From Eledone cirrhosa (lineage: Eukaryota), in the NCBI GenBank assembly GCA_964016885.1, contig OZ024741.1:106206001-106270000 (forward strand): a DNA stretch of 64,000 bases, written 5' to 3'. The notes under the pieces were generated by a model, which worked only from the letters and a program-made list of their open reading frames with translations, did no database searches and was not told where the DNA came from. This document shows positions 1 through 64,000 of the stretch, one piece after another; positions within the stretch are counted from its first letter, which is position 1; each line of letters opens with the position of its first letter. Position numbers and translations under genes: made by a program.

Positions 1-660
1 GGGGGGGTCGAAAATGATCCATTTTCCCCATACACTACGTATATTTTGGCATCTGCCAGCAGCTCCTTAGCTTTGCTTATATCTACTAGCAGATAGTCGA
101 GGGTTTTCCTTGCATTCTGGGCGGAGTCCTTTTCCTTGTTCATGTTGCTGTTGTTGTTATCATTGTTGTTGGTGTTGTTGTTGTTTTTGTTGTCTTTATT
201 GTTGCTGTTGTTGTTGTTTTTGTTGTCTTTATTGTTGCTGTTGTTGTCGTTGTTGTTGTTGTTGTTTTCAGGTTCTTGTATAGTTGTGGCTACATCAAGT
301 TGTTTGTCAGCAGGTGGAGAAAGTTCTACCTCTGGCTGACCTCTGCCTTTGGCATCTGCTGCTGTGACAGTGGCAGGGGGAAGCTGTGAGTTTAACTTCC
401 CTTTTCTTCCTTTGAATGTTGGTGAAGATGCTTCAGCCATTTTTATCAAAGTAGGATTTTTCGAAATTTTTCGAAAGATAAAATATTTTCACCAATATTT
501 CGCCTAAAGGCGTAGAATATTTTGAGAGATTGACCAGATCAAAAATTGATCTGGCAGTCCCTCTACAAAATGGTACAAAAATGAAAGTTTACAGTTAGGA
601 ATTTCTATGGAAATTTAGGCAGAACTTACCCAGCAAGTTTCACGCGTGTGTCCATCCCAG
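1..660 (-). mobile_element. Tx1/L1-clade LINE family A, 5' UTR and ORF1 N-terminus (continues left of the window)
   Basis: Near-identical to 20232-20893, whose ORF (20180-20683) aligns with ORF1 of the near-full-length element (SFAQTAGKTLDYLLVDISKAKELL vs SFADTVNKKQDFINLDISNARDML). The 5' end abuts (GATA)n. Confidence 0.75.
563..629 (-). other. Putative 67-nt spliceosomal intron in the Tx1 family A 5' UTR
   Basis: TGG|GTAAGT ... CCTAAC branch point ... TTTCATTTTTGTACCATTTTGTAG|. Same layout at 20797-20863 and in family B at 9402-9469. Confidence 0.65.
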
Positions 661-675
661 ATAGATAGATAGATA

Positions 676-750
676 GATATCTTTCTTTATTTGCCACAGG
701 GGCGTACAAAAATGGGACATTACAAGACGTAACGGCGGGGTTTTACATAA
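676..750 (-). mobile_element. Short Tx1 3'-terminal fragment
   Basis: Ends GCCCCTGTGGCAAATAAAGAAAG followed by (TATC)n, like the other Tx1 3' ends. Also at about 3556-3625, 20914-20985 and 23938-24005. Confidence 0.65.
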
Positions 751-957
751 AAATAACTTTAACATTAATAAATAACAATAAACTATATATAATAAAATAA
801 TAGATAGATAGATAGTTAGCTAGATTGACAAACAGACAGACAGAGACAGACAGACAGTTAGATAGAGAGGCAGATAGACAGACAGGCAGACAGACAGACA
901 GACAGATAGATACATAGACAAATAGACAGGGAGATAGATAGACAGATAGATAGATAT

Positions 958-2112
958 ATTTCTTTATTTACCATAAAGGCATAAAAAGAAGGGACAAATA
1001 CAAAGGGGGAGTTTACATAAAACCCAGTAAAAAGGGTATAAAATGAAAATAATCGAAAACAACCTCAAAAGGGAGGGGACGTGATGGGGTTGCACACACA
1101 CCCGAAAAAGTGTGCAATCCTTTGCCCAGGAAGCACATGGAGAAGGTGCTCCCCTCTCCTTCACTTCTTTACGTACAGGATGGTATACAGAGAAGGCCCA
1201 TTTACACGAGCCATTCTCGCCATTATCACCCACCTTTCATAAAACTGCCTGTGGCCAAGCACCTCTCTCTCCATTCTTATCCTTCTTCCGAAGTGATATC
1301 GGAAGAAGTAGACCAGACTATAGGCCAGAGAGGAAGTTTCCTGACCTCAGACCTTTCAATCGTGTGCACCAAACAACCTCTTTCAACATGGCTATTACGC
1401 ACAGAAAAACCGCCTTTGCTTCCTTTGTGAAGAGGGGAGGCGGCTTGATTGTCATCACGGACTCGGAGGTCAATCGAATCGGCGCCACCCGCGACAGCAG
1501 TCGTTCGGCGTAGCCCCACAGATCAGCCACGCCTGGACATTGCACCAATGCGTGCGCAACGGTTTCTTCGTGACGCACGCATCTAGGGCAAATCTTTTTC
1601 GAGGGATCCCTGCCCGGGCGCCCGTGTCTGTAGAGCCTCTCTCGAACGGGTAGAGCCCCCCGGTAGCACTGCCAGGCTAGTGACTTCTGGAAGTTGTCCA
1701 TTGGTCCCGGGCCGAAAGTCCTACCGAACAGGCTGGCCAGTTCGTCCTCTTCCATGTCCATCGACTCTCCAAGGGTGTCATCGCCCCTGCTAGCCACCAG
1801 CCCTCTATAGAATGATGAGGTGGATTCTCCACCGATGGCCTGGCCCGCTTGCCAGAGAGCCCTGAGCGCCTGAGCACACTCAGTGTGCCAGTCTCCCAGT
1901 CTGCTAATCCGGTTTCTGTAAGTTTCTTTTGCCGGTAAAGACAAATTAAGTTTCCAGTAACCGGGACCCTGTTTATGTGTTTTCTCGAGATTGACTACGC
2001 AGGTCACTAATTTGTGATCCGTATAGCCAACCGTGAGCATTTCTGGACAGCTTAATATGTCCCTATCCTTACTTCTAACTAAGAATCTATCTAAGTACGA
2101 TCTAGATTGTCT
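958..2112 (-). mobile_element. Tx1 family D, 5'-truncated, with an in-frame internal deletion removing the RT
   Basis: ORF 1318-2133 joins the endonuclease C-terminus (SYLDRF...TDHKLV...GPGYWKLN) directly to the ORF2 C-terminal Zn-knuckle region (CPRC...ETVAHALVQC). 3' end is AAATAAAGAAA+(TATC)n. Duplicate at 21188-22312. Confidence 0.85.
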
Positions 2113-2299
2113 AATAGGTAGATAGATAGACAAATAGACAGATAGATAGATAATTAGGTTATGATGACTATGACAATGATGATGATGTCAGTTCTCAGCC
2201 CCATGCAACAACAGATTAGTTCATTGTATGCTGCGTGCTCTGTCCACGTGAGTGATGAACATGAGGGTTGTAGAGTTTGTAGTTCTCCAACAAGGAGAC

Positions 2300-2356
<57 letters not shown>

Positions 2357-2552
2357 ACATACATATATACATATACCTACATACACACATTACACACAAG
2401 CTAGAAGGAGATTGTGACAGTAAGCAATTGTTTAATTGTTTAGAGACATTATGACCAGGTGTGATATATACATCCAGAGAGAGAAGGAATTGTAAACGTC
2501 ATTGGCAGCAATGGAGTCAGAAGAGTAGTAGTAGTAGTAGTAGTAGTGGTGA

Positions 2553-2605
<53 letters not shown>

Positions 2606-2702
2606 AGTACCCTATCATTAAAATTACCATTTTTTTACCTTCTTTGACATTCCATCTTGATATTTCCTTTTAAATTCTTTTTGGTTCACAAGACATTGTA
2701 TC

Positions 2703-3170
2703 TATAATAATTGTTTCTACTTTAGGCACAAGGCCAGCAATTATCCAGTGTCTTACTGGTACTTTATTTTATCGACCCTGTAAGGATGAAAGGCAAAGTC
2801 AACCTCGGCGGGATTTGAACTCAGATCGTAAAGGGGCGTAACTATGCTGGAAAGCATGGCGTCCGACTCTCTACCGATACTGCCAATCCACAGCCCTCTA
2901 TAATAATTGTTTCTACTTTCGGCACAAGGCCAGCAATTACCCAGTACATTACTGGTACTTTATTTTATCGACCCGTAAGGATGAAAGGCAAAGTTAACCT
3001 CGGCAGGATTTGAACTCAGAATGGCAAGGGCCGTAACTCTATGCGTCAAAGCATGGCGTCCGACATAATAATGGTTTCTTATATAGGCACAAGGCCATCA
3101 ATTTTGGGGGATAGTGAAAGTCGATGAAATTGACCCTAATACTGGTACTTTATTTTATTGACCCTGTGAA
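2703..3170 (-). mobile_element. Tandem cluster of tRNA-derived SINEs (about 3 units)
   Basis: A-box-like TGGCAGTATCGG, B-box GAGTTCAAATCC, and shared body GCCTTTCATCCTTACGGGTCGATAAAATAAAGTACCAG. Related copies at 23013-23480, 44080-44268, about 52985-53145, 56950-57160 and 57885-58110. Confidence 0.8.
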
Positions 3171-3317
3171 GATTGCTTTGGGTTTAAAATTGTCTCATTT
3201 TCACTAAGAAAATGGAATGGATTTTGTTGGACAACCCAATACATAATAATACATATTTGGGGTGAAAATTTACAGAAGTAGAAATATGTAGGGTGCTCAG
3301 AAGCAGAAAATGATGGT

Positions 3318-3473
3318 AACTACAGTCAGTTGCTGCTATAAAATAGCTTATTAAAATCTAGGAAAGACCCTTAGAGACAGAAAGATCTTTGTAGCAGCCG
3401 CTGTTAACATTTTTCTGTCTCTAAGGGTTCTTACCAAATTTGTATTAGCTATATTATAGCAACTGACTGTAAT
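3318..3473. repeat. Long imperfect inverted repeat (MITE-like or hairpin)
   Basis: ACAGTCAGTTGCT/AGCAACTGACTGT and ACCCTTAGAGACAGAAA/TTTCTGTCTCTAAGGGT arms. Duplicate at about 23628-23783. Confidence 0.75.
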
Positions 3474-3482
3474 TGCAATTAT

Positions 3483-3544
<62 letters not shown>

Positions 3545-3917
3545 TATAGATAGATATCTTTCTTTATTTGCCACAGGGGCGTACAAAATGGGGACATTAC
3601 AAGACCAATGGCGGGGTTTTAAATAAAAATAACTTTAACATTAATAAATAACAATAAACTATATATAATAAAATAATAGATAGATTTCTTTATTAGCCAC
3701 AAGGGCGCAACAAGAAAGGGGACAATACAAAGACATGCCGGGGATTTTACATACAGTCGTGTAAAAAATATAAAAACAAACAATTTCAACAATCGAAATC
3801 CCCAATAGGGGGAGGCGCCACAAATGGGTTGTTTAATACCCCGTCGATAGAACAACCCTCAACTCAAGGAGCGTGTTGTGCAAGTGCTCCTTTCTTCCTT
3901 TTGCTCTCTTCCTCAAC

Positions 3918-6900
3918 CTACAGGCTTATAAACAGAGAAGGCCCAATCACTCGGGCCATTTTCGCTTCATTCACCCACCTTTCAGTAAATTTACTGGGGT
4001 GCAGTGCCTCTCTCTCCACCCTGATTCTCCTTCTAAAGTGATACTTAAAGAATGGAATCAATTGTTGTCCGGAGAGAAAGGCATCTGTCCTCAGTCCTCT
4101 CAACCTCGTCCACCATATAACTTCTTTCACCATAGCCACCGTACAGAGGAAAACCGCCTCTCTTTCGTTTTTGAAAGAGTCTGGCGGTTTGATCCTTACT
4201 ATGGACTCGACAGTCAACTGTATTTGTCCCATACGCGACAGCAGTTGTTCTGCATAGTTCCACAGGTCGCTTACGCCCGGGCAGTCTACAATTGCGTGCA
4301 GAACTGTTTCAATGTCCTGCGCACATCTTGGACACGTCCTCTTGGAAGGATCTCTGCCAGGGCGTCCGTGCCTGTAGATCTTGTCACGAACCGGTAGAGC
4401 TCCTCGGTAGCACTGCCAGGCCAGGGACCTCTGGAAGTTGTCCATAGGTCCCGGGCGGAAAGTCCTACCAAACATACTGGTGAGCTCATCGTCTTCGACG
4501 CCCAGAGTCTCTCCGAGCACGTCGTCGCCCTTGTAACGTACAATCCCTCTATAGAATGTCGAAGTGGAGTCTCCACTGATTGCTGCGCCCGCTTGCCAGA
4601 GGACTGTGAGCGCCTGAGCGCATTCAATGTGCCAGGCGCCCATCGTTTTCGGTCTTTTCTTCACCCAGGACTGCAGCTCCGTTAGCGAGACGAGCTGTGG
4701 GAAAGCCTGTCTCACAAACGGTGCCCACACCGGTTGGGGGTCGGTGAGGAATACCTAGAGATGCCGCAGCCTCAGCGCATGTTTGCGCATCATCAGCCAC
4801 GGCATTCCCAGCCCTCCGTTGGAAGGGTGCTGACAGCAGACGGATCTGATCTCCTCACCAGCGGAGCCTGCTTCTTCCACAGAAACTGGAAGAGCATGCG
4901 TTCCATCTTGGCGAGGTGTTCACGGGGACAAGGCACGACAGTCAAGCGGTAGTAGATGACGGACGCTATGAAAGTGTTCGCCACCTCCGCTCGACCTTTC
5001 AATGACAGTTTGCACTCTGCCCACTTCTGAGTGAGTGCAAACACCTTGGCCGTGACCTCGTTCCAGTTTTTCTCCACCTGGAGGTCTGGACCGAACCAGA
5101 CCCCGAGCAATTTCACCGGTCCGTCCGTCCAGCGTCCAACGACGCTGTCGGATGTCATCGGTTTGCCTCTCCACGTACCGAGTTGCAAACCGACAGACTT
5201 GTCTGGGTTTAGTTTTGCTCCCGTCAGCGTTTCGTATTCTTTCAGTATGTTGCCGATCACCCCGATTTCCGAGGTGCTCGACACCATTACTGTCACGTCG
5301 TCGGCATAAGCCGACGCCGTTTTGCGCAGTCCCGGTTCTAGGGGGATGCCCTGCAACAGCTCCAATTTCCGCAGTAGTGGCTCTAGAGTCAATACATACA
5401 GAATGGAGGAGAGAGGGCATCCCTGTCGAATGGAACGCGTGATTGCGAACGGCTCCGATAGGTAGCCGTTCACCTTGACCCTCGAGCAGATGCTGGTGTG
5501 CATCGCCTCGATCCATCCTCTGAACACGGGACCGAAACCGGCCGCCTTGAGAACCGCTTCCAAGTATCGATGGTTGACCCTATCGAATGCCTTAGACTGA
5601 TCCAAGTTGATCAGAGCCCCACCGAAGCCGGGTTTACTACCCACCCTCTCTATGATGTATCGCATGAGGTGGAGGTTGTCGTGCATGGACCTGGTCGGGA
5701 TTGCACACGTTTGCGCTTTCCCTACCAGGTTCTCGACGACAAGCGCCAACCTCGTCGCTAGCACCTTGGCCAAAATCTTTAACTCTGTGTTGAGCAGAGT
5801 TATGGGCCTGAAGTTGTTAATTTCGTCCCCCTTGTTCTCGTCTTTCCTGATCAGCGTTACTACGCCCTTGCCTGCAGAACTGGGAATTCTCCCGTTCTGC
5901 TGCCAATTGCAGTAGACGGCTTCGAGGACGCCAGAGAACAAGTCCGGCATGCCTATGTAAAATTCGTAGGGTAGACCATCTAGACCGGGTGACTTGCGTT
6001 TCCCGCAGCGGCCCAGAGCGTCCCGTATCTCAGTGTCTGTGATCGGTCTTTCGCAGAACTCGGCGTCCGTGTTCGAGAGACGCGGCAGGCCGTCGAGGTA
6101 TGAACTAAAGTCCATTGCCCCGTTCGGCTCACCGTCGTTCCGCTCAAACAGTCGCGCAAAGTGCCGCTGAAAGGCCGCGCACATTTGCTTGGGGTCAAGT
6201 AGCACGCGTCCGTTTTGGTCTTTCAAAGACCGAATCGTGGACTTGTTGCCACTTTTTGCCTCCGCCACTCGGGCCCAGCTGACAGCTTTCGCTCCTTCGT
6301 TTCCTAGAGCACGTGTTTTGCTTCTGACCACGCAGCCTTCGTGTTTCGCATCGAAGAACTGGTCCAGTGCCGTTCTCGACGCTAACACTCTAGCCGCGTT
6401 GCCACTTCTAAGTGCCTCCTCTACCTTGGCTACTAGTTCTCTTTCTATTCTGTTTTTCTCTAAGGCTAACTCTCTGCTATACCCTATCGATTCTATTCTA
6501 ATTGCTTTCTTGAGAGAGTACCACCATCTATTGTTGACGATGGCTCCCGTTAACTGTTGCTTGACTAGTTTACTTATCCGTTCACTGTAAGCTTTACGTG
6601 CCGGCAACGACACGTTCAGCTTCCAGTATCCGGGACCCTGTCTATGTATTCTATCACGGTTGACTAAGCAGACGACTAACTTGTGATCTGAATAGGCAAC
6701 CATGTGCATTCGTGGACAGCTTAACATATCCTTGTCCCTTTCTCTAATGAAGAACCTATCTAAATACGATCTAGATGTCCCACTGCGGTTTACCCACGTC
6801 CACTGTGGTGCAGTCGGGAAATCCAGTCGATACCTATCGGCCAGTTGGAATTGGCCGATTAAAGTTTTGACGCTGTTGCACCCCGCTCTACTGGGACATG

Positions 6901-7369
6901 CTCCCACATAGTCCCATCGTGCATCTAGGATACCATTCCAGTCCCCCACTAAAAGTAAGGAGCGAGACGTTCCCAGAAAAGACTCTAGACGCTTAAAGAA
7001 GTCTGGCCGTGATTGCGATTGCCCGGTCGGGGCATAAACGGCCACCAGTCTGAAGGCTCCACCTCCGATACTGTTCACGTCTAGGACTACCAGTCTACCC
7101 TCCGGGTCCAAGTGTACTTGCTGTACTCCGACGTCCAGGTTCTTCCGAAACATAACAGCCACTCCACCTCCACCTCCTGGCTGACAGAGAGATGCGTAGA
7201 TCTCAAAGTCGTCGAAGATGGGGGTTAGTTGCTGCCTGTTGTGGATTCTGGACTCGGTGATGGCTATCACATCCATACTGTGTGACCTAAGGTCGTTTAA
7301 AAGTTGGCCCTGTTTCCAGGGCATCCCTAGGCCACGCACATTCACGGTTCCAACTCGTAAACCAGCCAT
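3918..7369 (-). pseudogene. Tx1 ORF2 (APE endonuclease, reverse transcriptase, C-terminal Zn finger), frameshifted
   Basis: Motifs NVRGL, VYAP, GDWN, SDH, KSPGLDG, FRPITLLN, DQSKAFDRV, RQGCPLS, AYADD and CPRC...HAIVDC. A 5-bp tandem duplication (GATCT twice, 4843-4852) breaks the frame. Confidence 0.92.
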
Positions 7370-7410
7370 GTTGGTGAAGAAAAGTTGGAGAAAAAGGACG
7401 AAAGGTGCAC

Positions 7411-9283
7411 TTACCTTTTCGTTTCCTGGAGATCGGGTTGTTCAATCTCCATTTGGGTGCTGGATGGGGTGTTGGGTGGGGTGGGGAAACCTTTCAACAG
7501 GACGCGGTTGATGGGTTTGTGGCAGGGGTTGCCCACGTCCTGTGAAAATTTAATTTTCAGGTCTTTATAGGTTTCCATAGAAACCCTTATAAGTTTAAGG
7601 TGTGGAGACGATTCTGCCTTGACGAAAGTTTTGCCCTCCGTCTCCACCTTGGGGTTTTGGGAGATGACCTCCATCAAACTCTTGTTGTTTGTGTTGATGT
7701 ATGCGTATTGTTGTTTGTGTTTTTGTTGTATTGTTTTTCATCTGGGAGTTTTCTTTTTATGGTGGGTGCTTGTGTTTGGGGTGGTGTTGGTGCTGGTTTT
7801 GCTGATAGGGGGGTGTTTGACTGTGGTGTTGTTTGTGTTGTTGTTTGTGTCTGTGGTTGTGTGTTGGTGTTGGTGATTGGAGTTTTGGGGGTTTTGTGGT
7901 GTCTCTTTTTTTGTTTTTGGGATTTCCGCGGTTCTCCCTCTTCTTCACTTAAAGAAGAAGCAGCAGCTTCATCCGTCGATGAATAATCATCGTCAGGTGT
8001 GTGGGGTAAGGGTATGTTGTGTGGTGGTGGTGGTGTTTCGGTATGTGTGTTTGTGGTAGTGTTTGATGGAGTGGGATGGAGTGGGGATGTGTTCTTCAGG
8101 GGTGTTGTCTCTGTTTTTTCTGTTGTTGTTGGTTGAGTGTCTGTTTGTTTTGGTGTGGTTGCTCGTTTCGTCTGTCGTTGTACTTGTGGTGGTGGTGGTG
8201 GTGGTTGTTTTGGTGTTGGTGTTGGTAATAGCGTTTTTTTTATGATGTTGCTGTTGTGTGTTTGTGGACAAGAGGCTTTTAGGTGAGATGTGCTACCACA
8301 GCGAAAGCAGTGAAATTTTCTTCCTTCTACCAAAATGTTTATTTTGTTGTTATTATCAATAACGACTCTTCCGGGTATTTTGGAGATTCTCTCCGGTTTC
8401 ATTTGCAACAGAATCTCCAAATCGGTGCCCGCCCACCTTTGTCGAATGGATTTTCGTATCGAAAGTATTATGTCTGTTTCTGGCTCTACGAAGCCAGCCA
8501 AGATCCACCAGATGTTAATGCTTGGAGGTATGTTTGTTATTTTTTTTTTTTGTGTCCTTTTCCCCATGTATGTAGGGAAAAAGGTGTATGCTTTTGACAC
8601 TATTGGTGTCACAGAGTTTTTTTGGGCCAGTGTCTCGCTTTTAAACAGTACGGAAACGCTTCCGTACTGTTTTCCTCGCTGGAGAAAATCGACATTTGCT
8701 AGAATCTCCTTGAAAGAATCTTCTATATCTGACTGGTTAACAAATGTCGGTTTTCTTGACGAATTTGACACAGTCCTAAAAGTGACTGATCGGCGGTTTG
8801 TGTCTTCCTTTATTTCAAGGGGTGAGTTAATTCTAAACCCACCTCTTTCTTCGAAAGTTACAAATTTTCTCCCTTGCTGGAGCATATCTCTTGCGTTGGA
8901 GATATCAAGATTTATAAAATCTTGTTTCTTGTTGACTGTGTCAGCAAAAGACATTTTCTTTTTTTTTGTGTGATGTTGTTGTTGATAATGATGTTATCGT
9001 TGTTGGAAATTGTATGTGTAGATGTATCTGTAGAGTTGTTGATGTCTTTTTCATGTGTATGTATGTCAATGGGTTTTTTTGCCGTGTTTTCCCGTGTGTT
9101 ATTGTCATTTTTCTCCGCTTCGGCGGTAGAAATTGTAACATTTTCAAATGTTGATATATTTTTTTCTTTTGTGACAGTATCTATGGCAACGTCCATAGCA
9201 GCAGAAGCAGATATAACGTTAATATCTGCCTCTTTCTCTCTCTTTTCACTATTAACGTTCTCCAGCGTTCTAGTGTTGCTCAA
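7411..9283 (-). pseudogene. Tx1 ORF1 (gag-like, CCHC zinc knuckle, low-complexity P/T/Q region), split at two A-runs
   Basis: ORFs 8912-9283, 7674-8954 and 7411-7677 join via single-base shifts at homopolymers (about 8960 and 7736). CFRCGSTSHLKASC knuckle present. Confidence 0.8.
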
Positions 9284-9401
9284 GTTTTTTTTACTTTGTA
9301 AAATTTGATATTTTAAGACAAACTTTTAAATAAAATTTTCGCCCCTACAGGGGCGAAAAATGGGATTACCACCCAGCTGACAATTCAGCTTGGGGGTTAA
9401 T

Positions 9402-9469
9402 CTACAAAGTGTTGTATTTTTTTCAAACAATTAGATCGGTTTTTGCATAGAAATTAACAAAAAACTTAC
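9402..9469 (-). other. Putative 68-nt spliceosomal intron in the Tx1 family B 5' UTR
   Basis: CCG|GTAAGT ... TCTAAT branch point ... CTTTGTAG|. Same position and length as the family A intron. Confidence 0.62.
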
Positions 9470-9529
9470 CGGCGATATTCCACACGTTAGACAGAAAGAT
9501 AGATAGATAGATAGATAAAATAATAGATA

Positions 9530-9906
9530 TATTTCTTTATTAGCCACAGGGGCACAAAAGAAGGGGACAAATACAAAGGAGGAAGTTTACATACAATAAA
9601 AACGTGTAAAATGTTATCACAGATGGAATTTAAAAGTTAGTCGATTTTCCCCAATAGAGGGAGACAGTTTATATGGGTAACACAGACCCCCGAAAAAAAT
9701 GTGCAACCCTCATCTCCAGGAGTACGAAGAGCTTGTACTCCTTTCCTCTCCTCCTCCTTTTCCTCAACCTACAGGCTGATATAGAGAGAAGGCCCATTCA
9801 CTCGGGCCATTCTCGCCACTTTCACCCACCTTTCATAAAACTTGCTGGGGTACAGCACCTCTCTCTCCATCCTGATTCTTCTTCCAAAGTGGTATTTGAA
9901 AAAAAG
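9530..9906 (-). mobile_element. Tx1 family C, 5'-truncated copy
   Basis: ORF2 C-terminus and 3' UTR matching 11512-11950; flanked by AAAATAATAGATA at 9517 and 9907. Confidence 0.85.
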
Positions 9907-9909
9907 AAA

Positions 9910-9958
9910 ATAATAGATAGATAGATAGATAGTTAGCTAGATTGACAAACAGACACAC

Positions 9959-9991
<33 letters not shown>

Positions 9992-10629
9992 GTTAGATAG
10001 AGAGGCAGATAGACAGACAGGCAGACAGGCAGACAGACAGACAGATAGACAAATAGACAGGGAGATAGATAGACATCATCATCTTCATTATCACCACCAC
10101 TGCCACCATCATCATCATCATCACCATCATCACCATCACCATCCTCCTCATCATCACCATCACCGTCGTTATTATCACCATCATTACCACCCTTATCATC
10201 ACCACTACCACCACCATTATCATCATCATCACCATCACTATCACCATCACTGTCATTACCACTGCCATCATCACCATCACCATCATAGTTACCATTGACG
10301 TCATCGATAATTACCACAATAATAAACAGAATGCTAACAACAATAACAACAACAACAAAAGGAAAGGTTGAATTTTTGTATTCTATTCTCCATATTTTTC
10401 CAGTGAGTTATGACAATATGTTAATGTAAGGTTAACAGCAATCTACACACACACATACACACATACAGACACATACACAACCATACATATACACTCACAT
10501 ACACACATACACATACACACATACACATATATACATATAAACACACACACACAGTGGAAGTTATACTAGTCATGTGTTTTGTTCCATAGTGATGTAGAAA
10601 TGTCATCTTAGAGGCTCTCTTTTTTTGGA

Positions 10630-10660
<31 letters not shown>

Positions 10661-10713
10661 TACACACACACATATACATATACATACACACACACACATA
10701 TATATATGCATGC

Positions 10714-10780
<67 letters not shown>
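9910..10780. repeat. Compound microsatellite block: (GATA/GACA)n, (CAT/CAC)n, (CA)n, (TA)n
   Basis: Direct reading; duplicated at about 24055-25000. Confidence 0.9.
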
Positions 10781-10781
<1 letters not shown>

Positions 10782-11122
10782 CATCATTTCATCATTTCAT
10801 TTTACGTCCGCTTTTCCCTGCTTGCAAGAGTGGGACGGGAACTGATTCTGGCTTGATTTCTACAGCTGGATGCCCTTCCTAACACCAACCTCATTTACAG
10901 TGAGTGCTGGGTGCTTTTTTGCCGTGGCACCTCCACAACCACTTTGCAGTGGAATGATATGGACCCCAGTCCCTATCATCTCATTTCTACAGCTGAGTAA
11001 ACTGGAGCAATGTGAAATAAAGTGTCTTGCTCAAGGAAACAACACATCACCCGGTCTGAGAATTGAACTCACAACCTTTCGATTGCAAGGCCAATGCTCT
11101 AACCACTAATCCATGTGCCTCC
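10780..11122 (-). mobile_element. tRNA-head, CORE-like SINE with RTE-derived 3' tail
   Basis: GAGTTCAATTC B-box and CCTTGAGCAAGACACTTTA core; tail matches RTE 3' ends (51361-51415, 47750-47890). Related copies at 42665-43108 and 48045-48295. Confidence 0.75.
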
Positions 11123-11176: not shown

Positions 11177-11511
11177 ATGTATATATGTATGTATGTATAT
11201 ATATGTTTATATATTTAAAGAGAGAGACTGCAATATGAAGAAGAGAAAGACTAAGATAAAGTTGAAAAATATAAGGAGGGAGAGAAAAAAAGAGATAGAC
11301 TTTAAGATATAAAGATAATAGAAGTTTTGATAAGGAAAGAAGGTTAAATGTTATTCAGTCATTGTCCAAGCCTAGCTTAACTCTGTTCACTTAACTATAG
11401 ACATTGTTAATAAAACAAGTCTTTTAGCTATTAACTAAATAGCAATGACACGTTATTGTTGGTGGCGGTCTTCTTCTTCTCCTACTCATTCTTTATCTAT
11501 CTATCTATATG

Positions 11512-11950
11512 TATGGTGGACAAGGTTGAAAGGGCTGAGGTCAGACACATTTCTCTCCGGCCAACAACTGATTCTTTTTTTCAAATACCACTTTGGAAGA
11601 AGAATCAGGATGGAGAGAGGGGTGTTGTACCCCAGCAAGTTTTATGAAAGGTGGGTGAAAGTGGCGAGAATGGCCCGAGTGAATGTGCCTTCTTTCTATG
11701 TCAGCCTGTAGGTTGAGGAAAAAGAGGAGGAAAGGAAGGGAATATAAACTCTTCGTACTCCTGGAGATGAGGGTTGCACATTTTTTTCGAGGGTATGTGT
11801 TACCCATATGAACTGTCTCCCCCTATTGGGGAAAATCGACTAATTTTTAAATTGCATTTGTGATAATATTTTACACGTTTTTATTGTATGTAAACTTCCC
11901 CCTTTGTATTTGTCCCCTTCTTTTGTGCCCCTGTGGCTAATAAAGAAACA
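11512..11950 (+). mobile_element. Tx1 family C, 5'-truncated copy with 18-bp TSD
   Basis: WWTRLKGLRSDTFLSGQQLI...YVSL*; TSD TATCTATCTATATGTATG at 11498-11515 and 11951-11968. Duplicate at 28253-28691. Confidence 0.88.
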
Positions 11951-12207
11951 TATCTATCTATATGTATGTATGTCTTTCTTTATCTATCTATCTGTCACAA
12001 TCCACCTGTGTCTCTCTGTCTATTAGCACTGTGTATATGTGTATATATGTATGTGTGTCTATATGTGTGTATGTGTATATAAGTATGTATAAGAGCTGTA
12101 TACCAACTTCATTGTTCACTAAATATTGACTCTAAAGATAATCTTGTGAAAATATATGTATGTGTATATATATATATGTGTATATATATATATGCATACA
12201 CACATAC

Positions 12208-12239
<32 letters not shown>

Positions 12240-13269
12240 TGTGTATATAATACTACCTTAATGGTTCACCAAAGATTGACTCCATCACATAATCCTATGG
12301 AAATGTGAAGAACGTTCTACCAATGCGTCATGGCTGACACGTGGTGACAGACACTGCTGTATAATGTCACTGGAATGTTGTTGGTGTTGTGATGGTGGTG
12401 TTGTTGTTGTGGTGGTGGTGGTGGTGGTGGTGGAACTGGTCATAGAGACATTGGAATAGTGGTGGTGGTGATGGTGTTGTGGTTGTGTTGTAGTGGTGCT
12501 GGCGATGGCAACACTCTTCTTGTTGTTCAGTTATAGGTCAAGCTCATCAAGCTGACCTATGATCAAAAGAATTTCATTTGTGACATTCTCATATTTTTTC
12601 AATCACAATCTACCAAGGCTACACTATCTAATGTAACTTTACTTTTTCACATGTGTATCCTCTTGGACAGGTATCGTCTGCCATAGCCTTGATATAGTAA
12701 GTAAAAACACTTAGTGTTTTGGTTGCTAGTCCTTCATTGGAAGATAGAATGAGAAATAAAAGAAGGTATGTTTGGGAGAGAGGAGGAAATAGAAAGATAG
12801 ATCAAAGATACTCTGGATCTTTCTCAGCAAACACATGTATGTGCCATTGATTTTCTTTGTGAGTTTTTATGTGTTGTGGAGAAGATAACTCCCATAGTAC
12901 CTGGTGCCCACCTGTGCAGGGTTATGTGAATATCCATTTGGAAAACAGGAATGGTGATTGTGCTGAGAAGTGAACACTGATAAACAGTTGTTTTAGTTTT
13001 CAGTTCTTGTTTGCCTAGTGGAGGAACCAATCATCAGGTCAATGGTAGGGGAATTCTGCCTCCATCAGTGGGGCACTGTGCTGGTAAGAGTGATGGAAAA
13101 TCATCAGAGTATTTCTATTAAAAGTAACTAGTACTAACAGGAGTTCCTCAGTTAGTGCCCATGATTTTCTGTCTCCACATGGTCCTGAAGAAGGCTCAAC
13201 TCCTTCCTATGAAGATGATGTTCTCAATCATACTGGAGTAGCATCCTCTGATATCAGAACCAAGAGGGG

Positions 13270-14330
13270 ACTATCTCGACCAAAGAGATTATACACCTTC
13301 AGCTCTCTAAACTGTCACTCACTCACATCCTACTTTTCACGTGAAGAGCTCAACAAGCATATCAACACACACAGCATTGTGATTGTATATGTTCAAGAAC
13401 ACTAACGAAAATGAACCAGGCATAATCACCCAGAACATTGGCAAAAGAACTCTGTTTACTGCATCAGCATAAAAAGATGACATCGGTGCTGCAATTGGGT
13501 TAGTTTGACAATACAAACACATCTTCTTCTTATACTTACAAAGGTAACTAAGGTTAAGGTTAATGATTGGATTGTCACATCAGTATTCAAGGGAAATCCA
13601 GCAACTGTTATTATAAGCTGCTATTCACCCTACAATCACCTGCAAGTGGAGGAAATAGAACACTTTTACCATGAACCAAGTGCCGCTTTCTGAAGTACCT
13701 CCACATGCCATGCTAATTATTGGAGGAGATTTCAACACACAAATTAAAGGCAAATTTTCATACCATCAGACTACTAACAGAAAAGGCGTATTTTTAGAAA
13801 AGTTTTTACCTCAACATAATCTCCTAGGTGGGAATACCATCTTCCAAAAACTGTGGACTTGAAGACACTTGGTAGCCATATCTCCCATGTTGAATTTGTT
13901 TATATGAAACAATGGAGGAACAGAATTCATGATTGCCAGGGACATATTTCCTCTGCAGCTGTTAGGGGAGATTGCAACATCATCATGGCCAAAACTCAGC
14001 CTTCACTCAAACAGGAAATCCAGTAAGAAACAACTTTACTGGAGGATGCTAAAGGAAGATGTCAACCATGCAAGAACAATTGATAATTCAATTGCTAATT
14101 AATCTGAATCCTTGACAGCTAATGAGAAAAAATACACTTCTTTTGTGTCCATCTGTAATGAAGTAGGGGAAGAAAACCTACCAAGAATCACTCGAGCCAC
14201 ACTTCATGTGGAAAATACAATAATTGCTACATTTAGAAGCCACACCCTCAAATCAGTTTCAGATGTACAGCATCCCCAGATCACCAGAATATTCAGTGCT
14301 CTAATTTCAACCATCTGGAGTATGAAAGAA
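13270..14330 (+). pseudogene. Old degenerate LINE APE-endonuclease remnant
   Basis: Fragments IISCYSP, LIIGGDFN and NLLGGNTIFQK across several frames; duplicate at about 30030-31100. Confidence 0.6.
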
Positions 14331-14483
14331 TCACCCAAACCCTGGTTGATTTAGAGAATAGTATATATATATATATATACAGTATATATATATATATATA
14401 TATACAGTATATATATATATATATATACAGTATATATATATATATATTTATATACTGTATATATATATATATATATATATACA

Positions 14484-14555: not shown

Positions 14556-19878
<5,323 letters not shown>

Positions 19879-19962
19879 GTATATATATGTGTATAGAGAG
19901 AGAGAGAATAACATTAGAATTTAGCTTTGAACATAGCTGTATACAAATATGTATTTGAATTT

Positions 19963-20893
19963 TTTGTGGCCTTCTACCCATGCACGTAGGGTAGAAAGTG
20001 TATGCGGCGGATGTAATTGGTTTTATGGACAGTTTGACTGCTGTGTCCCTGTCCTTCATGAGAAAGGATAGACTCCCGTAGAGTCTATCCTTCTGAATGA
20101 ATATGATGTCTTTCATGACAGCTTTTAAAACCAGCTCTATCTCACTCTGTGATGGTTGAGCTGGTTTTTTGCTTTTGTTTCAGACTGTCCTAAACATGAC
20201 AGTGTTTAGGAGTCTCTGGCTTTTTAGTTCCGGGGGGGGGGTCGAAAATGATCCATTTTCCCCATACACTACGTATATTTTGGCATCTGCCAGTAGCTCC
20301 TTAGCTTTGCTTATATCTACTAGCAGATAGTCGAGGGTTTTCCCTGCAGTCTGGGCGAAGGAGTCCTTTTCCTTGTTCATGTTGCTGTTGTTGTTATCAT
20401 TGTTGTTGATGTTGTTGTTGTTTTTGTTGTCTTTATTGTTGCTGTTGTTGTTGTTTTTGTTGTCTTTATTGTTGCTGTTGTTGTCGTTGTTGTTGTTGTT
20501 TTCAGTTTCTTGTATAGTTGTGGCTACATCAAGTTGTCGGTCAGCAGGTGGAGAAAGTTCTACCTCTGGCTGACCTCTGCCTTTGGCATCTGCTGCTGTG
20601 ACAGTGGCAGGGGGAAGCTGTGAGTTTAACTTCCCTTTTCTTCCTTTGAATGTTGGTGAAGATGCTTCAGCCATTTTTATCAAAGTAGGATTTTTCGAAA
20701 TTTTTCGAAAGATAAAATTTTTTCACCACTATTTCGCCTAAAGGCGTAGAATATTTTGAGAGACTGACCAGATCAAAATTTGATCTGGCAGTCCCTCTAC
20801 AAAATGGTACAAAAATGAAAGTTTACAGTTAGGAATTTCTATAGAAATTTAGGCAGAACTTACCCAGCAAGTTTCACGCGTGTGTCCATCCCA
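19963..20893 (-). mobile_element. Tx1 family A 5' fragment (5' UTR plus partial ORF1), cut at the duplication junction
   Basis: ORFs 20180-20683 and part of 19688-20116 are homologous to family B ORF1 (AYTFYPTCMGRRPQK vs AYTFFPTYMGKRTQK). Confidence 0.8.
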
Positions 20894-21187
20894 GATAGAT
20901 AGATAGATAGATATCTTTCTTTATTTGCCACAGGGGCGTACAAAAATGGGACATTACAAGACGTAACGGCGGGGTTTTACATAAAAATAACTTTAACATT
21001 AATAAATAACAATAAACTATATATAATAAAATAATAGATAGATAGATAGTTAGCTAGATTGACAAACAGACAGACAGAGACAGACAGACAGTTAGATAGA
21101 GAGGCAGATAGACAGACAGGCAGACAGACAGACAGATAGATACATAGACAAATAGACAGGGAGATAGATAGACAGATAGATAGATAT

Positions 21188-22312: not shown

Positions 22313-22329
22313 ATAGATAGATAGATAGA

Positions 22330-22426
22330 TTTCTTTATTAGCCACAAGGGCGCAACAAGAAAGGGGACAATACAAAGACATGCCGGGGATTTTACATACA
22401 GTCGTGTAAAAAATATAAAAACAAAC
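22330..22426 (-). mobile_element. Tx1 family B ~100-bp 3' end inserted in (GATA)n, copy 2 only
   Basis: Matches 3685-3781; absent at the paralogous site near 2120. Confidence 0.85.
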
Positions 22427-22598
22427 AGACAAATAGACAGATAGATAGATAATTAGGTTATGATGACTATGACAATGATGATGATGTCAGTTCTCAGCCC
22501 CATGCAACAACAGATTAGTTCATTGTATGCTGCGTGCTCTGTCCACGTGAGTGATGAACATGAGTGTTGTAGAGTTTGTAGTTCTCCAGCAAGGAGAC

Positions 22599-22633
<35 letters not shown>

Positions 22634-22806
22634 ATGTATGTATACATACATATATACATATACATACATACACACATTACACACAAGCTAGAAGGAGATT
22701 GTGACAGTAAGCAATTGTTTAATTGTTTAGAGACATTATGACCAGGTGTGATATATACATCCAGAGAGAGAAGGAATTGTAAACGTCATTGGCAGCAATG
22801 GAGTCA

Positions 22807-22849
<43 letters not shown>

Positions 22850-22853
22850 GGTG

Positions 22854-22916
<63 letters not shown>

Positions 22917-23820: not shown

Positions 23821-23905
23821 TATATTTCTTTATTAGCCACAGGGGCACAAAAGAAGGGGACAAATACAAAGGGGGAAGTTTACATACAATAAAAACGTGT
23901 AAAAT

Positions 23906-23906
<1 letters not shown>
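23821..23906 (-). mobile_element. Tx1 family C ~85-bp 3' end inserted in (GATA)n, copy 2 only
   Basis: Matches 9528-9613; flanked by GATA repeats. Confidence 0.85.
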
Positions 23907-23937
<31 letters not shown>

Positions 23938-24231
23938 TCTTTCTGTATTTGCCACAGGGGCGTACAAAATGGGGACATTACAAGACCAATGGCGGGGTTT
24001 TAAATAAAAATAACTTTAACATTAATAAATAACAATAAACTATATATAATAAAATAATAGATAGATAGATAGTTAGCTAGATTGACAAACAGACACACAG
24101 AGAGACAGACAGACAGACAGTTAGATAGAGAGGCAGATAGACAGACAGGCAGACAGGCAGACAGACAGACAGATAGACAAATAGACAGGGAGATAGATAG
24201 ACATCATCATCTTCATTATCACCACCACTGC

Positions 24232-24269
<38 letters not shown>

Positions 24270-24872: not shown

Positions 24873-27929
<3,057 letters not shown>

Positions 27930-28691: not shown

Positions 28692-28957
28692 TATCTATCT
28701 ATATGTATGTCTGTCTTTCTTTATCTATCTATCTGTCACAATCCACCTGTGTCTCTCTGTCTATTAGCACTGTGTATATGTGTATATATGTATGTGTGTC
28801 TATATGTGTGTATGTGTATATAAGTATGTATAAGAGCTGTATACCAACTTCATTGTTCACTAAATATTGACTCTAAAGATAATCTTGTGAAAATATATGT
28901 ATGTGTATATATATATATGTGTATATATATATATATATGCATACACACATACATATG

Positions 28958-32209: not shown

Positions 32210-35200
32210 ATCATCATCATCATCAGGTTTAGCGTCCGTGTTCCATGCTTGCATGGGTTTGGACGGGGGTTTTCCCACTTGAGGCAAGAGTGGTTGTCTT
32301 GCTCGCATAGGACTGTCTGGCGGGTTTTCTACAGTTGGATGCCCTTCCTAACACCAACCACATTTACAGTGTGGGGCTGGGAGGTTTTTACCGTGTTGCC
32401 TACACGGCCACATTACAGCGTGGACTGTCTGGCGGGTTTTCTACAGCTGGATGCCCTTCCTAACACCAACCACATTTACAGTGTGGGGCTGGGAGGTTTT
32501 TACCGTGTTGCCTACACGGCCACATTTACAACGTGGACTGTGTGTTTTTTTGTCGTGACACCTACACAATCTCATTTGTTTCGGCCTGGATGTTGTGGGA
32601 CCAACATAACTTTACATTGAAAGGGGCGGTGTGGATGGGGTGGAGGTGGTGGGACGGGGGGGGGTTGATAGAGATGCCTACTGACTGTAGTAGGTTTTTA
32701 CTTTGTATTTAGGTAAGGCGGGTCTTCTCTATTACTGAGTACCGCCAAAGGTCTCGGTCCAGTGACATTGTCTTGGAGAGGTGTAAGCGTGTGAGGTCGG
32801 AATTTATCAGCTCGTCCCATGTTTTTCTGGGTCTGCCTACTCCGTGGCTACCGTCTATCTTTATTGCCCTGCACTTTGTTATACAGCTGTCGTCTTTCAT
32901 GCGCATCACGTGACCGTACCAACGTAGCCTTCTCTCGAGTAAACAACATCTGATCCCTCTTATTTCTAATTTTTTCCTTAGTTCGTTTATGCTTTGCCGT
33001 TCACGTATATTACTATTGCACATCCAGCGGAGCATGCAAGCTTCGTTCCTCTCTAGTCTGCGTATATCCTCTGCACACAATGCCCAGGTCTCACTGCCAT
33101 GCAGCATTGCTGTTCGTATGCAGGCATCGTATAACCTGCCTTTCATTTTTAGGGAGAACCCTCTAGCGGCTAATAGTGGTATAAGCTCTCTGAACTTTTT
33201 CCATCCAGTTCTGACTCTAGCTACTGTACTTTCAGAGCACCCTCCCCCACTGCTGATTTTGTCACCCAGATAACGGAAGCTGTCCACTATTTCTATAGAA
33301 CCCTCTGCGCAGTTGAAGGAGCTAGTATTTTGTGGGCACTTGCTGCTACTTATTGCACCAGAGCACCGGCCACATGTAAAATCTATGTTCTTAGTTAGCT
33401 TACCTGTGATCCCACTACATCTTTTATGCACCCATACTTTGCATTTGGGACATAAAATGGAGTTTCTACCTACGCCTTTCCTACACACCGAGCATGGCCA
33501 TTTCCCAGATGGGACTGCCACCTTATTTTCTTTCCTACAAACTAGAACTTTAGTCTTAGCCAGGTTAATTTTAAGGCCTTTTGATTCTAAGCCGTGCTTC
33601 CATGTTTGGAATTTCTTCTCTAGTTCGGTCATTGATTCAGCTATGAGCGTTAGATCATCTGCGTATAGGAGTTCCCATGGGCAGCCGGTCTTGAACTCCT
33701 CTGTTATAGCCTGAAGGGCAATAATAAATAGTAGGGGGCTAAGAACAGAGCCCTGATGGACACCAACTTTTACGCTAAACTCTTCACTATATTCGTTGTT
33801 AATTCTAACCTTACTGACTATTTCTTTATACATGGCTTGTATAGCTCTCACAAGCCATTCGTCAACACCTAGTTTTCTAAGAGACCACCAGATAATGGAA
33901 CGGGGGACTCTGTCGAAGGCTTTCTCCAAGTCGACGAAAGCTAAGTATAGGGGTTTACTTTTAGCAAGGTACTTCTCCTGTAGTTGTCGTACAATGAAAA
34001 GAGCGTCTGTGGTACTTTTGCCTGACACAAATCCGAACTGCATTTCATCTAGATCAATTCTCTCTCTGATTAGTTGCGCTATTACTTTTTCCGTGACCTT
34101 CATGACCTGGTCGATTAATTTAATGCCTCTATAGTTACTCCTATCTAGGGCATCTCCTTTTCCCTTATAGCAGTTAACGATGATGCTGCTACGCCAGTCC
34201 TTCGGAACAACCCCATTCTGTACGACTTGGTTAACTATCCGGGTGACCATGGTGTGTCCCACCGAACCAGATGCCTTCAGCATCTCAGCAACTATTTCCG
34301 AAGGCCCAGCCACCTTACCCATCTTCATATCTTTGATTGCCTTGCTTATTGTACTACCCTGGACTAACACTGCTGGTCCCTCTATTGGGTCGATGTGGGG
34401 GAGACTGTCTTTCTCCCATTTGTTCTCCTCATTTAGAAGCCTTTCGTAGTGACACTTCCAAGCTACCTTCTTATCAGCGTCGGTGATGGCAAGTATGCCA
34501 TCATCGTTAAGTACACACTTCTCCCCGTCAATATCACGGTTTTCCTTGACACATTGCCTGGCAATCCTGAACACCTCACGTTTTTGGTCCTCACGTTGTA
34601 GAACATGCTTGAACTTTCTTTCCTCTGCTTCCCTTCTTGCGAAGTACACTTGTCTCCTAGCTTCCCTCCTGGCCACCTGATAGTCTTCTCTACTTCCCCC
34701 ATCCCGCCATACTTTCCAAGCCTGCTTTTTGGCCTTAATTGACTCCTCCACCTTACTGTTCCACCACCATGTTACTCTCCTCCTACCTACAGGCCTGCTC
34801 CAGCCACAGACTTCGTCTGCCGCCGTCAGCAGGTTTGCTCTCAGGAATTCTCACTGTTCCTCTATATTATACGACTCTAATTTCTCTTCCTTACTGTCGA
34901 AAGCGTCAAGTAATATGCTTTGAAATTTATTTCTGGCTATGGGGTCCTTTAGCTTCCATATTTTTCTCCTGAGGATAGTCCTCTTCCGCTGTCTAGTACG
35001 TCTCGTCCTGACTATGAGGTCGCTAATTATCAGTCTATGTTGGGAGGTGAATTCTTCATGGGGGAGGGATTTAGTGTTAACAACAGACACTCTGTCACGT
35101 CTTCTGGTAAGGATATAATCTACCTGGCTTGTGTGTTCCCCCGATCTATAGGTGATCAAGTGATTGTCTCGTTTTTTGAAGTTAGTGTTACAGATAGTTA

Positions 35201-62522: not shown

Positions 62523-62551
62523 CTGGAAGAAGAAGAAGAAGAAGAAGAAGA

Positions 62552-64000
62552 ATGTTTTCTTTATTAACCACAAGGGTTTACATAAAGTAGACATTAAGGA
62601 CAGTACAGGACAATACAGGACGGTACAAATGGGCATTTCTGCGTGTAAAAAAAACAGAGGATGTAATAAAATAACAAAGAAAAATTCCCCAATAGGGGGG
62701 AGACTTCCGAGGGACATTTGTGGAGAAAGCCCATTAAAAGACCACAGTGACCCTGACCACCAGGGCAAGTGCCCTCTCCCAGTTTTCCACCTTTAATTTA
62801 CAGACACATACTCAGAGAAGGCCCATTCATTCGGGCCATACTTGCTTCTCTCACCCATCTTTCAACAAAATGCTGGGAAGAGAGCACTTCCCTCTCTACC
62901 CTGATTTTCCTTTTCAAATGAAATTTGAAAAAGTTAATCAGGGTATCACCGAAGAGGTAAGTGCTCGTCTTCAGCTCTTTCAAACGTGTCCACCATACTA
63001 TCTCTTTCGCCATAGCCACCAGACAGATAAAAACTGCCTGCCCTTCCCGGCTAAAAGAAGAGGGCGGGGCAATCCTCACGATGGACTCAGCTGATAGCTG
63101 GATCCGTCCTACACGTGACAGCAGGTGTTCGACATAAACCCACAAGTCAGCAATGCTCGGACACTGGACGAGTGCGTGCAGGACGGTTTCGTCGCCCTGC
63201 ACGCATCTCGGACATGCCCGGCTGACGGCACCTCCGTGCCTGTAGAGTTTATCCCGAACTGCCAAAGCTCCCCGGTAGCACTGCCAGGCCAGGGATTTCT
63301 GGAAGTTGTCCATAGGCCTCGGCCCGAAAGTCCTTCCGAAGAGATTGGCTAGTTGATTTTCGTCGATGCCTAGAGTTTCTCCAAGTACGTCGTCGCTCTT
63401 CCCCTCCACTAATCCCCTATAGAACGCCAAGGTTTCCACCGATCACATTGCCCGATTGGTCGAGGGCTGTGAGCGCCTGATGACATTCCAGTCTCCAAGC
63501 GCTCCCTCTCGGTCTTCGCTTGACCCAGGACTGCAGCTCCGTCAAGGAGACGAGCTGGGGAAAAACGCATCTAGCAAACGGCGACCACACCTGATCACCG
63601 TCGAGGAAGAGGTGGAGATGTCGTAGCCTGAGCGCGTGTCTGCGCATCATCAGCCACGGCATGCCCAGCCCTCCACGTAGCGGGTGTTGACAGCAGATGG
63701 ACCGCCTGACCATCGGAGCGCGTCCCTTCCACAAGAAGCGAAAGAGCAAACGCTCCAGCGCAGTCAGGCGGGGCTTAGGACAAGGTACGACGGTCAGGCG
63801 GTAGTAGATGACGGACGCGATGTACGCGTTAGCCACCTCCGCTCGACCTTTCAGGGATAGCTTCCTCTCGGCCCATTTCTGGGTGAGAGAAGCTACCCTG
63901 CTTGTCACCTCGTCCCAGTTTTTGTCCGTCTGGAGGTCTGGACCGAACCAGACCCCTAGCAATTTAACCGGTCCGTCCGTCCAGCGCCCGACGACGCTGT
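62552..64000 (-). mobile_element. Tx1 family E (RT thumb, C-terminus, 3' UTR) inserted at (TTC)n in a DPH7 intron
   Basis: ORFs 63417-63962 and 62798-63439 are homologous to family B ORF2; 3' end is TAATAAAGAAAACA+(TTC)n. Confidence 0.9.

Follow-up and report, generated by a model that had tools for sequence, protein, structure and literature searches.

Several retrotransposon lineages without long terminal repeats (non-LTR) insert selectively into simple repeats, and among these the microsatellite-targeting elements of the Tx1 clade are the closest described systems for the elements considered here. Kibi targets (TC)n and Koshi (TTC)n in teleost fish, and crocodilian Tx1 elements use (TTCC)n/(TTTC)n (PMC4494074, PMC3812793); a preliminary description of the present DNA had given the Kibi target as TCC, which these sources correct to (TC)n. 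Waldo (ACAY), Mino (AC), Dong (TAA), and SART/TRAS (telomeric repeats) are likewise specific for simple repeats, although they belong to other lineages and use other repeats, and SART1Bm requires a poly(A) tail, whereas the element ends described below have none (PMC3812793, PMC7265360). In Octopus vulgaris, 13 recently active L1-Tx1 families have been reported (PMC13282606). Here, 64,000 nucleotides of DNA from Eledone cirrhosa (contig OZ024741.1, positions 106,206,001 to 106,270,000 of the forward strand; the whole of this stretch is called the window) illustrate a group of L1/Tx1-type long interspersed nuclear elements (LINEs) that insert at a fixed point of the GATA repeat, directly before TATCT, and that probably find this site largely through pairing by the 3' end of their RNA. 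Families A-D were lettered in the preliminary description; E and F are added in this analysis.

The likeness to Kibi and Koshi is that of an apurinic/apyrimidinic endonuclease (APE)-type LINE with two open reading frames (ORFs) seated in a pyrimidine-rich microsatellite, and family E abuts TTC as Koshi does. The differences lie in the repeat, as families A-D use (TATC)n/(GATA)n and none of (TC)n, (TTC)n, or TTCC/TTTC, and in the host, a mollusc-like invertebrate; the likeness is one in the way of working. (GATA)n is absent from the targets given in the portions of PMC4494074 and PMC3812793 that were covered, and the accessible part of the literature outside Repbase and subscription journals, judged mostly by titles and the openings of abstracts, yielded no GATA-targeting Tx1 element, no targets of cephalopod Tx1 elements, and no introns in Tx1 5' untranslated regions (UTRs). 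Prior annotation of a GATA-targeting Tx1 element is possible, and the GATA target is a modest extension of the known microsatellite-targeting elements; targeting inherited through the RNA is a credible lead from this analysis.

A stacked insertion site at the edge of a GATA run

Between positions 3670 and 9919, a full-length, broken element (A1) and a 5'-truncated element of a second family (B1) lie head to tail between three copies of a 13-bp target-site duplication (TSD). In element sense, the site reads (TATC)n, TSD, B1, TSD, (ATCT)5, A1, TSD, D. Its components are as follows.

3483..3556, no strand: (GATA)18 array, 3' of D; empty counterpart of B3
3557..3669, minus strand: D, an older, short, 5'-truncated copy ending AATAAAGAAA-GA, whose 5' junction forms the reused site
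3670..3682, minus strand: first copy of the 13-bp TSD (TATCTATTATTTT in element sense), 3' of A1
3683..9496, minus strand: A1, full-length Tx1-like LINE with 5' UTR, ORF1, ORF2, and a 3' UTR ending AATAAAGAAA-TC
3921..4754, minus strand: C-terminal part of A1 ORF2 with zf-RVT, past an in-frame stop near 4757
4796..7372, minus strand: A1 ORF2, APE endonuclease and reverse transcriptase; the frame breaks near 4830
7411..9300 (upper bound approximate), minus strand: A1 ORF1 region with a CCHC-like knuckle and frameshifts near 8960 and 7680
9497..9516, minus strand: additional perfect (ATCT)5 separating the A1 5' end from the TSD, absent from the empty sites
9517..9529, minus strand: second TSD copy, between B1 and A1
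9530..9906, minus strand: B1, 5'-truncated family B copy ending AATAAAGAAA-TA
9907..9919, minus strand: third TSD copy, 5' of B1, running on into host (TATC)n
24051..24063, minus strand: empty paralogous site for A1 and B1; further copies at 794-806 and 21028-21040

The 13-mer AAAATAATAGATA straddles the boundary between the GATA run and an AT-rich remnant, that of the older truncated copy D. As the TSD stands at the edge of both the run and the remnant, the spot has been hit at least three times; the order in which A1 and B1 arrived is not readable because both have the same 13-mer as their TSD. The three occurrences reported earlier around two elements (3670, 9517, and 9907) stand, but the 13-mer is found six times in all, and the single empty site that had been placed in the duplicate at about 24050 is replaced by three empty paralogous sites (794, 21028, and 24051). 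Head-to-tail copies around one TSD with different 5' truncations are known from SINEU-3 and from R1 or jockey dimers that arose by double insertion; the present site differs from these in that two families meet at one microsatellite edge and in that their ends are tailless (PMC4494074, PMC5932611).

A1 has the composition of an APE-type non-LTR retrotransposon of the L1/Tx1 group, with an ORF2 that contains an endonuclease (EN), a reverse transcriptase (RT), and a C-terminal zinc region, and with a separate ORF1. ORF2 matches PF03372 (E 4.5e-14) and PF00078 (E 7.9e-28) above the Pfam cut-off, its best PDB match is L1 ORF2p (E 2e-52 over 836 residues), and alignment with L1 locates the EN and RT catalytic motifs NVRG, E, VYAP, GDWN, SYLD, SDH, and YADD. 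The match to PF13966 (zf-RVT) falls under the curated cut-off in A1 (E 4.1e-5) and above it in family E. ORF1 has no Pfam match; its ESM look-alikes are zf-CCHC and ZCCHC3-like proteins (scores 0.92-0.87, to be taken as a lead), and it is 42% identical to the ORF1 of F over 138 amino acids. A1 is a dead copy, as ORF1 is frameshifted twice and ORF2 holds a frameshift and a stop, and it is a young element, as A2 and A3 are identical to it at 882 of 887 and 101 of 101 bases, respectively. The marks of target-primed reverse transcription, namely 5' truncation, intact 3' ends, and TSDs (the last missing from A3), are present. Architecture, together with the preference of families A-D for a target sequence that is expected of the Tx1 clade, suggests the name Tx1; in the homologue searches names stood on 1 of 120 and 3 of 7 of the matches listed, none of them a named Tx1, and the sole species name among the close protein matches listed is Argonauta hians, in keeping with a likely octopod host.

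The TATCT register and the empty sites

A scan of the window for the conserved 3' terminus located 14 ends. Further copies and sites are as follows.

1..658, minus strand: F, 5'-intact relative with 5' UTR and ORF1, starting straight after (TATC)5T; duplicate at about 19890-20892
680..799, minus strand: D', a D paralogue that shares the D 5' flank; duplicated at 20914-21033, while 23938-24056 is the duplicate of D
957..2113, minus strand: C, truncated and internally deleted, ending AATAAAGAAA-TA; duplicate at 21187-22312
11498..11968, plus strand: B2, with TSD TATCTATCTATAT(GTATG) at 11498 and 11951; duplicate near 28239-28709
15986..16905, plus strand: A2, in RTE coding sequence at a single TATCT, TSD 14-17 bp
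22328..22427, minus strand: A3, a copy of 100 nt that is identical to the 3' end of A1 and lacks a TSD; its empty counterpart lies near 2119-2130
23823..23909, minus strand: B3, 87-nt copy within a pure GATA array
35180..35196, minus strand: empty RTE site matching the A2 target, with one TATCT and no repeat
62526..64000, minus strand: E, sister family whose tailless 3' end abuts (TTC)9 at 62526-62552
680-944; 3557-3682 plus 9907-10075; 20914-21175; 23938-24203: four occurrences of a 290-bp unit containing D

In the available protein stretches, families A, B, and C are 66-77% identical to A1, D being represented by its 3' UTR only, and the C-terminal part of E is 62% identical to A1; a C-terminal tree of 23 rows pairs A1 with C (99/98) and leaves E and P0001 outside. 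C joins the EN-linker to the C-terminal region at 1898-1917, an internal deletion of ~1.9 kb. No 3' end of F and no empty site for E were found in the window. D together with ~145 bp of TATC/TGTC 5' flank forms the recurring 290-bp unit, whose neighbours differ on both sides; it may be a local DNA duplication or a non-autonomous, repeat-headed element like a short interspersed nuclear element (SINE).

Thirteen of the 14 ends read AATAAAGAAA-NN followed by TATCT, so that TATCT begins exactly 2 nt past AATAAAGAAA (one of the thirteen carries AATACAGAAA in its place), and poly(A) is found at none of the 14. The two terminal nucleotides are family-specific: A, C, and D end in TC, TA, and GA, respectively, and B ends in TA or CA. 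The fourteenth end, that of family E at 62555, abuts (TTC)9 instead of TATCT, and this is the longer of just two perfect AAG runs in the window. The earlier report of (C)TATCT in the same orientation after nearly every Tx1 3' end is thus borne out. The thirteen ends, however, cannot be counted as independent events. Four pairs are products of segmental duplication (681/20915, 958/21188, 3558/23939, and 11949/28690), and D and D' have a common 5' flank (135 of 138 aligned bases), so that 8 TATCT insertions remain, plus E; the more than 10 copies originally assigned to families A-D hold as ends but not as separate insertions.

TATCT occupies 261 of 128,000 strand positions in the window, and 8 of the 9 insertions are at this motif (binomial p about 3e-21, with the motif picked after seeing the data and the families being kin). 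Seven of the 8 lie in or at the edge of TATC arrays, a proportion to be compared with 57 among the 190 TATCT sites that are not duplicated (p 0.0013); a lone TATCT sufficed once, at A2. In the empty or upstream sequence, C precedes the nick at A1, B1, A2, A3, B2, and B3, and thus also in family B, whose elements themselves end in A.

The TATC repeat is target, not tail. Five insertions (A1, B1, A2, A3, and B3) have an empty counterpart, and all five counterparts already hold TATCT at the insertion point, one of them inside RTE coding sequence; empty sites lacking TATC, which the preliminary description had itself named as grounds for refutation, were thus not encountered, and a tail-only origin of the repeat is largely ruled out. 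At A2, the empty RTE paralogue reads TAAC/TATCTGTAAC and the filled site GAAATC/TATCTGTAAC (the slash marking the insertion point), with a TSD of 14-17 bp and no repeat added. No repeat unit has been gained at the 3' junction of A1 or B1 either, and TATCT begins the upstream copy of the TSD. TSDs are usually 11-18 bp long; the longest exact matches are 15 bp for A1, 13 for B1, 18 for B2, 17 for A2, and 19 for C, of which 2-5 bp can be microhomology (the shortest reading for A1 is 13 bp). The TSDs of B3 and D are not separable from the surrounding pure repeat. As had been noted, other TSDs also start with TATCT (11498/11951, up to 18 bp), and both GATA targeting and serial insertion at one target are supported by the empty sites and TSDs. 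A structured RNA or small-RNA gene as the target was considered and discarded, as Rfam gave 0 matches at the gathering score in the window and six relative loci.

How the site may be found

In target-primed reverse transcription, an APE endonuclease nicks the target and the RT copies the RNA from the resulting 3' end; polyadenylation cleavage normally occurs 10-30 nt downstream of AAUAAA. The EN of these elements would nick the AGAT strand. Their poly(A) signal lies 6 nt before the element end, so that cleavage should fall in the flanking target and give an RNA with a few UAUC units before the poly(A). These units would anneal to the nicked ...AGATA-3' primer, setting the register and leaving the poly(A) out, and insertion before TATCT with a TSD would rebuild the site for the next insertion. 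A family with its master copy in GATA would then keep returning to GATA, and one with its master in TTC, as may be the case for E, to TTC, with the nuclease probably adding a weaker preference. The priming step envisaged here, in which the RNA 3' end pairs with the nicked target, has been reported to aid the I factor, R1Bm, and R2Ol (PMC6007223). In those elements the protein fixes the site and pairing refines it; here pairing is proposed to set the target and to allow subfamilies to switch it.

The evidence bearing most directly on this mechanism comes from a sister lineage. A scan of genome contigs gave 74 relative loci, of which 62 (L001-L060, L062, and L069), all from a single record labelled as a bacterial metagenome-assembled genome (MAG), provide the junction counts; the 12 others (26-32% identity) were left out of these. 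The 62 loci are largely head-to-tail arrays of full-length LINEs with units of about 6.4-6.9 kb and mostly intact ORFs, which makes it most likely that the MAG-labelled record is eukaryotic DNA. Their ORF2 is about 42-43% identical to that of A1, and in an RT tree of 42 rows (from a quick search, with unnamed relatives only) A1 and P0001 are together sister to the array group, with a Shimodaira-Hasegawa-like approximate likelihood ratio (SH-aLRT) support of 99. Poly(A) and TATCT are each present at 0 of 58 distinct array 3' ends (the pattern passed over one contig), and three TATC units occur in 0 of the 62 loci. The array ends stop 0-3 nt past AATAAA and are followed by a spacer of 16-18 nt that recurs at the 5' edges of the arrays L034, L059, and L029 and also ahead of 5'-truncated copies on two contigs, for which reasons it is taken to be a reused TSD. 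In the L002 subfamily, the first 7 nt of the spacer are nearly constant and the remainder is variable; where array edges of this subfamily lie in different host flank, L022 matches at 7 of the first 8 nt and L009 at the first 4 only. The 5'-flank spacers of L029 and L059 resemble, by eye, tRNA-type SINE motifs like those at 2800-2830 of the window (B-box-like TTTGAACTCAG), and some array relatives may target SINEs.

Eight subfamilies of these arrays are 91.5-98% identical in ORF2, 90-96% in EN, and 79-97% in the last 150 nt, and seven of the eight have the same hairpin loop, but the likeness among their spacers does not exceed that of shuffles (6.04 matches of 15, with 5.97 in the shuffles). 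Because subfamilies with 90-96% identical EN carry eight unrelated target sequences, the comparison favours pairing of a read-through RNA with the nicked target as what may be a heritable memory of that target.

Several observations weigh on the other side. The window holds the EN of only one of the GATA families, so that EN and target cannot be compared among A-E, and the 5-nt match at A2 is little for pairing alone. The 4-10% by which the ENs differ could be enough to alter specificity, and in SART/TRAS the target does change when ENs are swapped (PMC7265360). It may also be that each relative subfamily represents a single locus, or a few, expanded by unequal exchange after a double insertion, which would give unrelated spacers without RNA guidance; growth of arrays from a double insertion by unequal exchange is known (PMC5932611). 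Finally, the array relatives are just about 43% identical to A1, and A3 has no TSD.

Of the other explanations, the one that survives best, although it is clearly the less likely, is that the EN of families A-D itself recognizes (GATA)n, as is assumed for Kibi and Koshi, and that RNA pairing is minor. This would be the standard model for Tx1 and R1 (PMC4494074, PMC7265360), and it would readily explain why four families (A, B, and C, 66-77% identical to A1, and D) have a common target and group apart from E where tested, why arrays are preferred over a lone TATCT, and why C precedes the nick at the six insertions listed above, even in B with its terminal A. It does not easily accommodate the sister subfamilies, in which near-identical EN with the same loop sits at eight unrelated targets, although the identity of the loop is suggestive at most, since in L1 grafts specificity is not determined by the loop alone (PMC1950540). 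Thus, of the nuclease-based specificity for GATA implied at first, the target is supported and the nuclease as its basis is brought into question by the relatives.

RNA pairing, if it does operate, can be carried a step further. In this tentative extension, the target address itself resides in the RNA: read-through would copy the previous target, so that specificity would be inherited and could jump without change in the protein, and full-length copies would deliver the 5' repeat. If true, this would represent a naturally reprogrammable, RNA-addressed APE retrotransposon, with GATA specialists and one TTC specialist. The families allow a direct test of whether nuclease or RNA-DNA pairing chooses the site in APE-type LINEs, and of fast target switching, as the GATA group, its sister at TTC, and the relatives, in which near-identical nucleases sit at unrelated targets, amount to a natural swap experiment. 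Were the RNA end to set the address, changes to a few RNA bases could redirect an element to another target. GATA loci, which are often used as markers, can in such genomes be insertion hot spots that grow by TSD.

Delivery of a 5' repeat has its own evidence, most of it centred on A1. The preliminary description had placed about 28 nt of (TATC)-like repeat inside the TSD at 9489-9516; the repeat is there as described, but only 9497-9516 is perfect, and the extra is likely 20 nt, the (ATCT)5 listed above. Positions 9489-9496 are excluded as probably the element's own start, since homology of the 5' UTR with F and the relatives begins there: homology between the A1 and F 5' UTRs sets in about 10 nt past the repeat, and in the relatives the 5' end lies about 25-30 nt ahead of the GTAAGT motif that A1 and F also carry. 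The 28-nt figure is accordingly cut to 20. Most likely, the (ATCT)5 was copied at the 5' junction, from donor flank or from target nearby, and is not fixed cargo. That the full-length copy delivers new target, as had been suggested, is possible and no more, as a 5' extra is seen once: none lies inside the TSDs of A2, B1, or B2 or at the 5' junction of A3, B3 is uninformative, and C is ambiguous, with 17 TATC-like bases inside a possible 19-bp TSD.

It is accordingly unlikely that a fixed 5' (ATCT)5 on full-length RNAs lays down a new GATA array with each insertion for later copies to use, a process that would be compatible with RNA pairing and not exclusive of it. The 20 nt of perfect repeat inside the A1 TSD and the start of F right after (TATC)5T are what such seeding would produce, and each of the 20 perfect GATA arrays (at least 3 units) has an element boundary no more than 31 nt away. 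In the L002 subfamily, moreover, spacer variants track the 5' UTR type of the downstream copy, as if the upstream target travelled with the 5' end. Yet A1 is a single informative copy, the flank of F is not divisible into TSD and cargo, and the arrays reach past TSDs, occur in empty sites, and collapse from 20 to about three clusters. Some relatives also show short, variable 5' extras unrelated to a fixed repeat, and template jump and transduction are known to produce 5' extensions (PMC4494074).

Far less probable is an origin of the pattern in passive accumulation, DNA-level duplication, or mis-assembly. The window is repeat-rich animal DNA, with AT, ATC, and AGAT microsatellites, RTE and Penelope-like ORFs, and segmental duplication (1-10795 versus 20235-24955; 11218-14361 versus 27958-31128) at 98.7% and 99.5% identity in two unique stretches, and duplication does inflate 8 insertions to 13. 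Four LINE insertions (A1, B1, A3, and B3) distinguish 1-10795 from 20235-24955, which are 98.7% identical in the stretch measured; the two segments may be haplotypes assembled in tandem, in which case these insertions may be polymorphic, but the argument from empty sites is unaffected. Duplication cannot produce different families that have different 5' truncations and TSDs and share one fixed register. AT arrays (2228 bp in the window, versus 372 bp of AGAT) and ATC arrays are, furthermore, as common or commoner, yet the 3'-terminus scan of the window found no LINE end of the AATAAAGAAA kind at either.

Hardly credible at all is a microsatellite tail made during reverse transcription in the style of RTE, CR1, or L2, with no real target: the overlap of element and target at the 3' junction and the frequency of repeat tails in RTE-clade elements (PMC6007223) would fit it, but TATCT is in five of five empty sites, A1, B1, and A2 gained no 3' unit, TATCT opens the upstream TSD, and no 3' repeat tail absent from the empty site, as in microsatellite-tailed LINEs, is seen. 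A repeat at the RNA 3' end linked to the first TSD bases is common to the RTE clade and the present elements; here, however, no repeat tail is laid down, and the match is at least 5 nt in a fixed register versus 1-2 nt (PMC6007223).

Neighbouring repeats and splice-like motifs

The window also contains young RTE-like LINE copies (15125-19743, 25003-27870, 32226-36049, and 45939-47117), 92-97% identical and some inverted, which bear 112-bp 3' duplications and (GAT)n tails. ORFs at 37457-40879 (minus strand), with an RT and a GIY-YIG-like C terminus, presumably belong to a Penelope-like element. A 175-bp stretch at 3309-3483 and 23619-23793, adjoining the GATA array, has internal inverted symmetry (the duplicate copy matches its own reverse complement at 75%) and is possibly a miniature inverted-repeat transposable element (MITE).

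Splice-like motifs recur in the 5' UTRs and at the junction of the two ORFs.

9402..9469, minus strand: predicted 68-nt spliceosomal intron (GTAAGT, CTAAT, TTTGTAG) in the A1 5' UTR, retained in the genomic copy
563-629 and 20797-20863, minus strand: predicted 67-68-nt intron in the 5' UTR of F and its duplicate
7409..7414, minus strand: a further donor-like GTAAGT, which overlaps the stop codon of ORF1

In A1 and F, the stretch GTAAGT...CTAAY...TTTGTAG measures 67-68 nt and starts 27-29 nt into the 5' UTR; the pattern fitted to these two occurs in the window at only those three places and in 0.04-0.07% of shuffles. Among the relatives, 35 of 62 loci have a donor within 90 nt past the upstream 3' end; array ends, truncated neighbours, and subfamilies whose 5' UTRs are of another type are among the loci that lack one. 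The acceptor is inconsistent. CCTGTAG after ORF2 was dropped as a conserved splice acceptor, being the last codon plus the stop, where E has TAA. GTAAGT occurs only twice in A1, and GGTAAGT stands at the ORF1/ORF2 junction of A1. The same motif precedes the ATG of ORF2 in 56 of 60 relative loci (one family; L002 2991-2996), and it could yield an ORF1-only mRNA or act as a U1 binding site.

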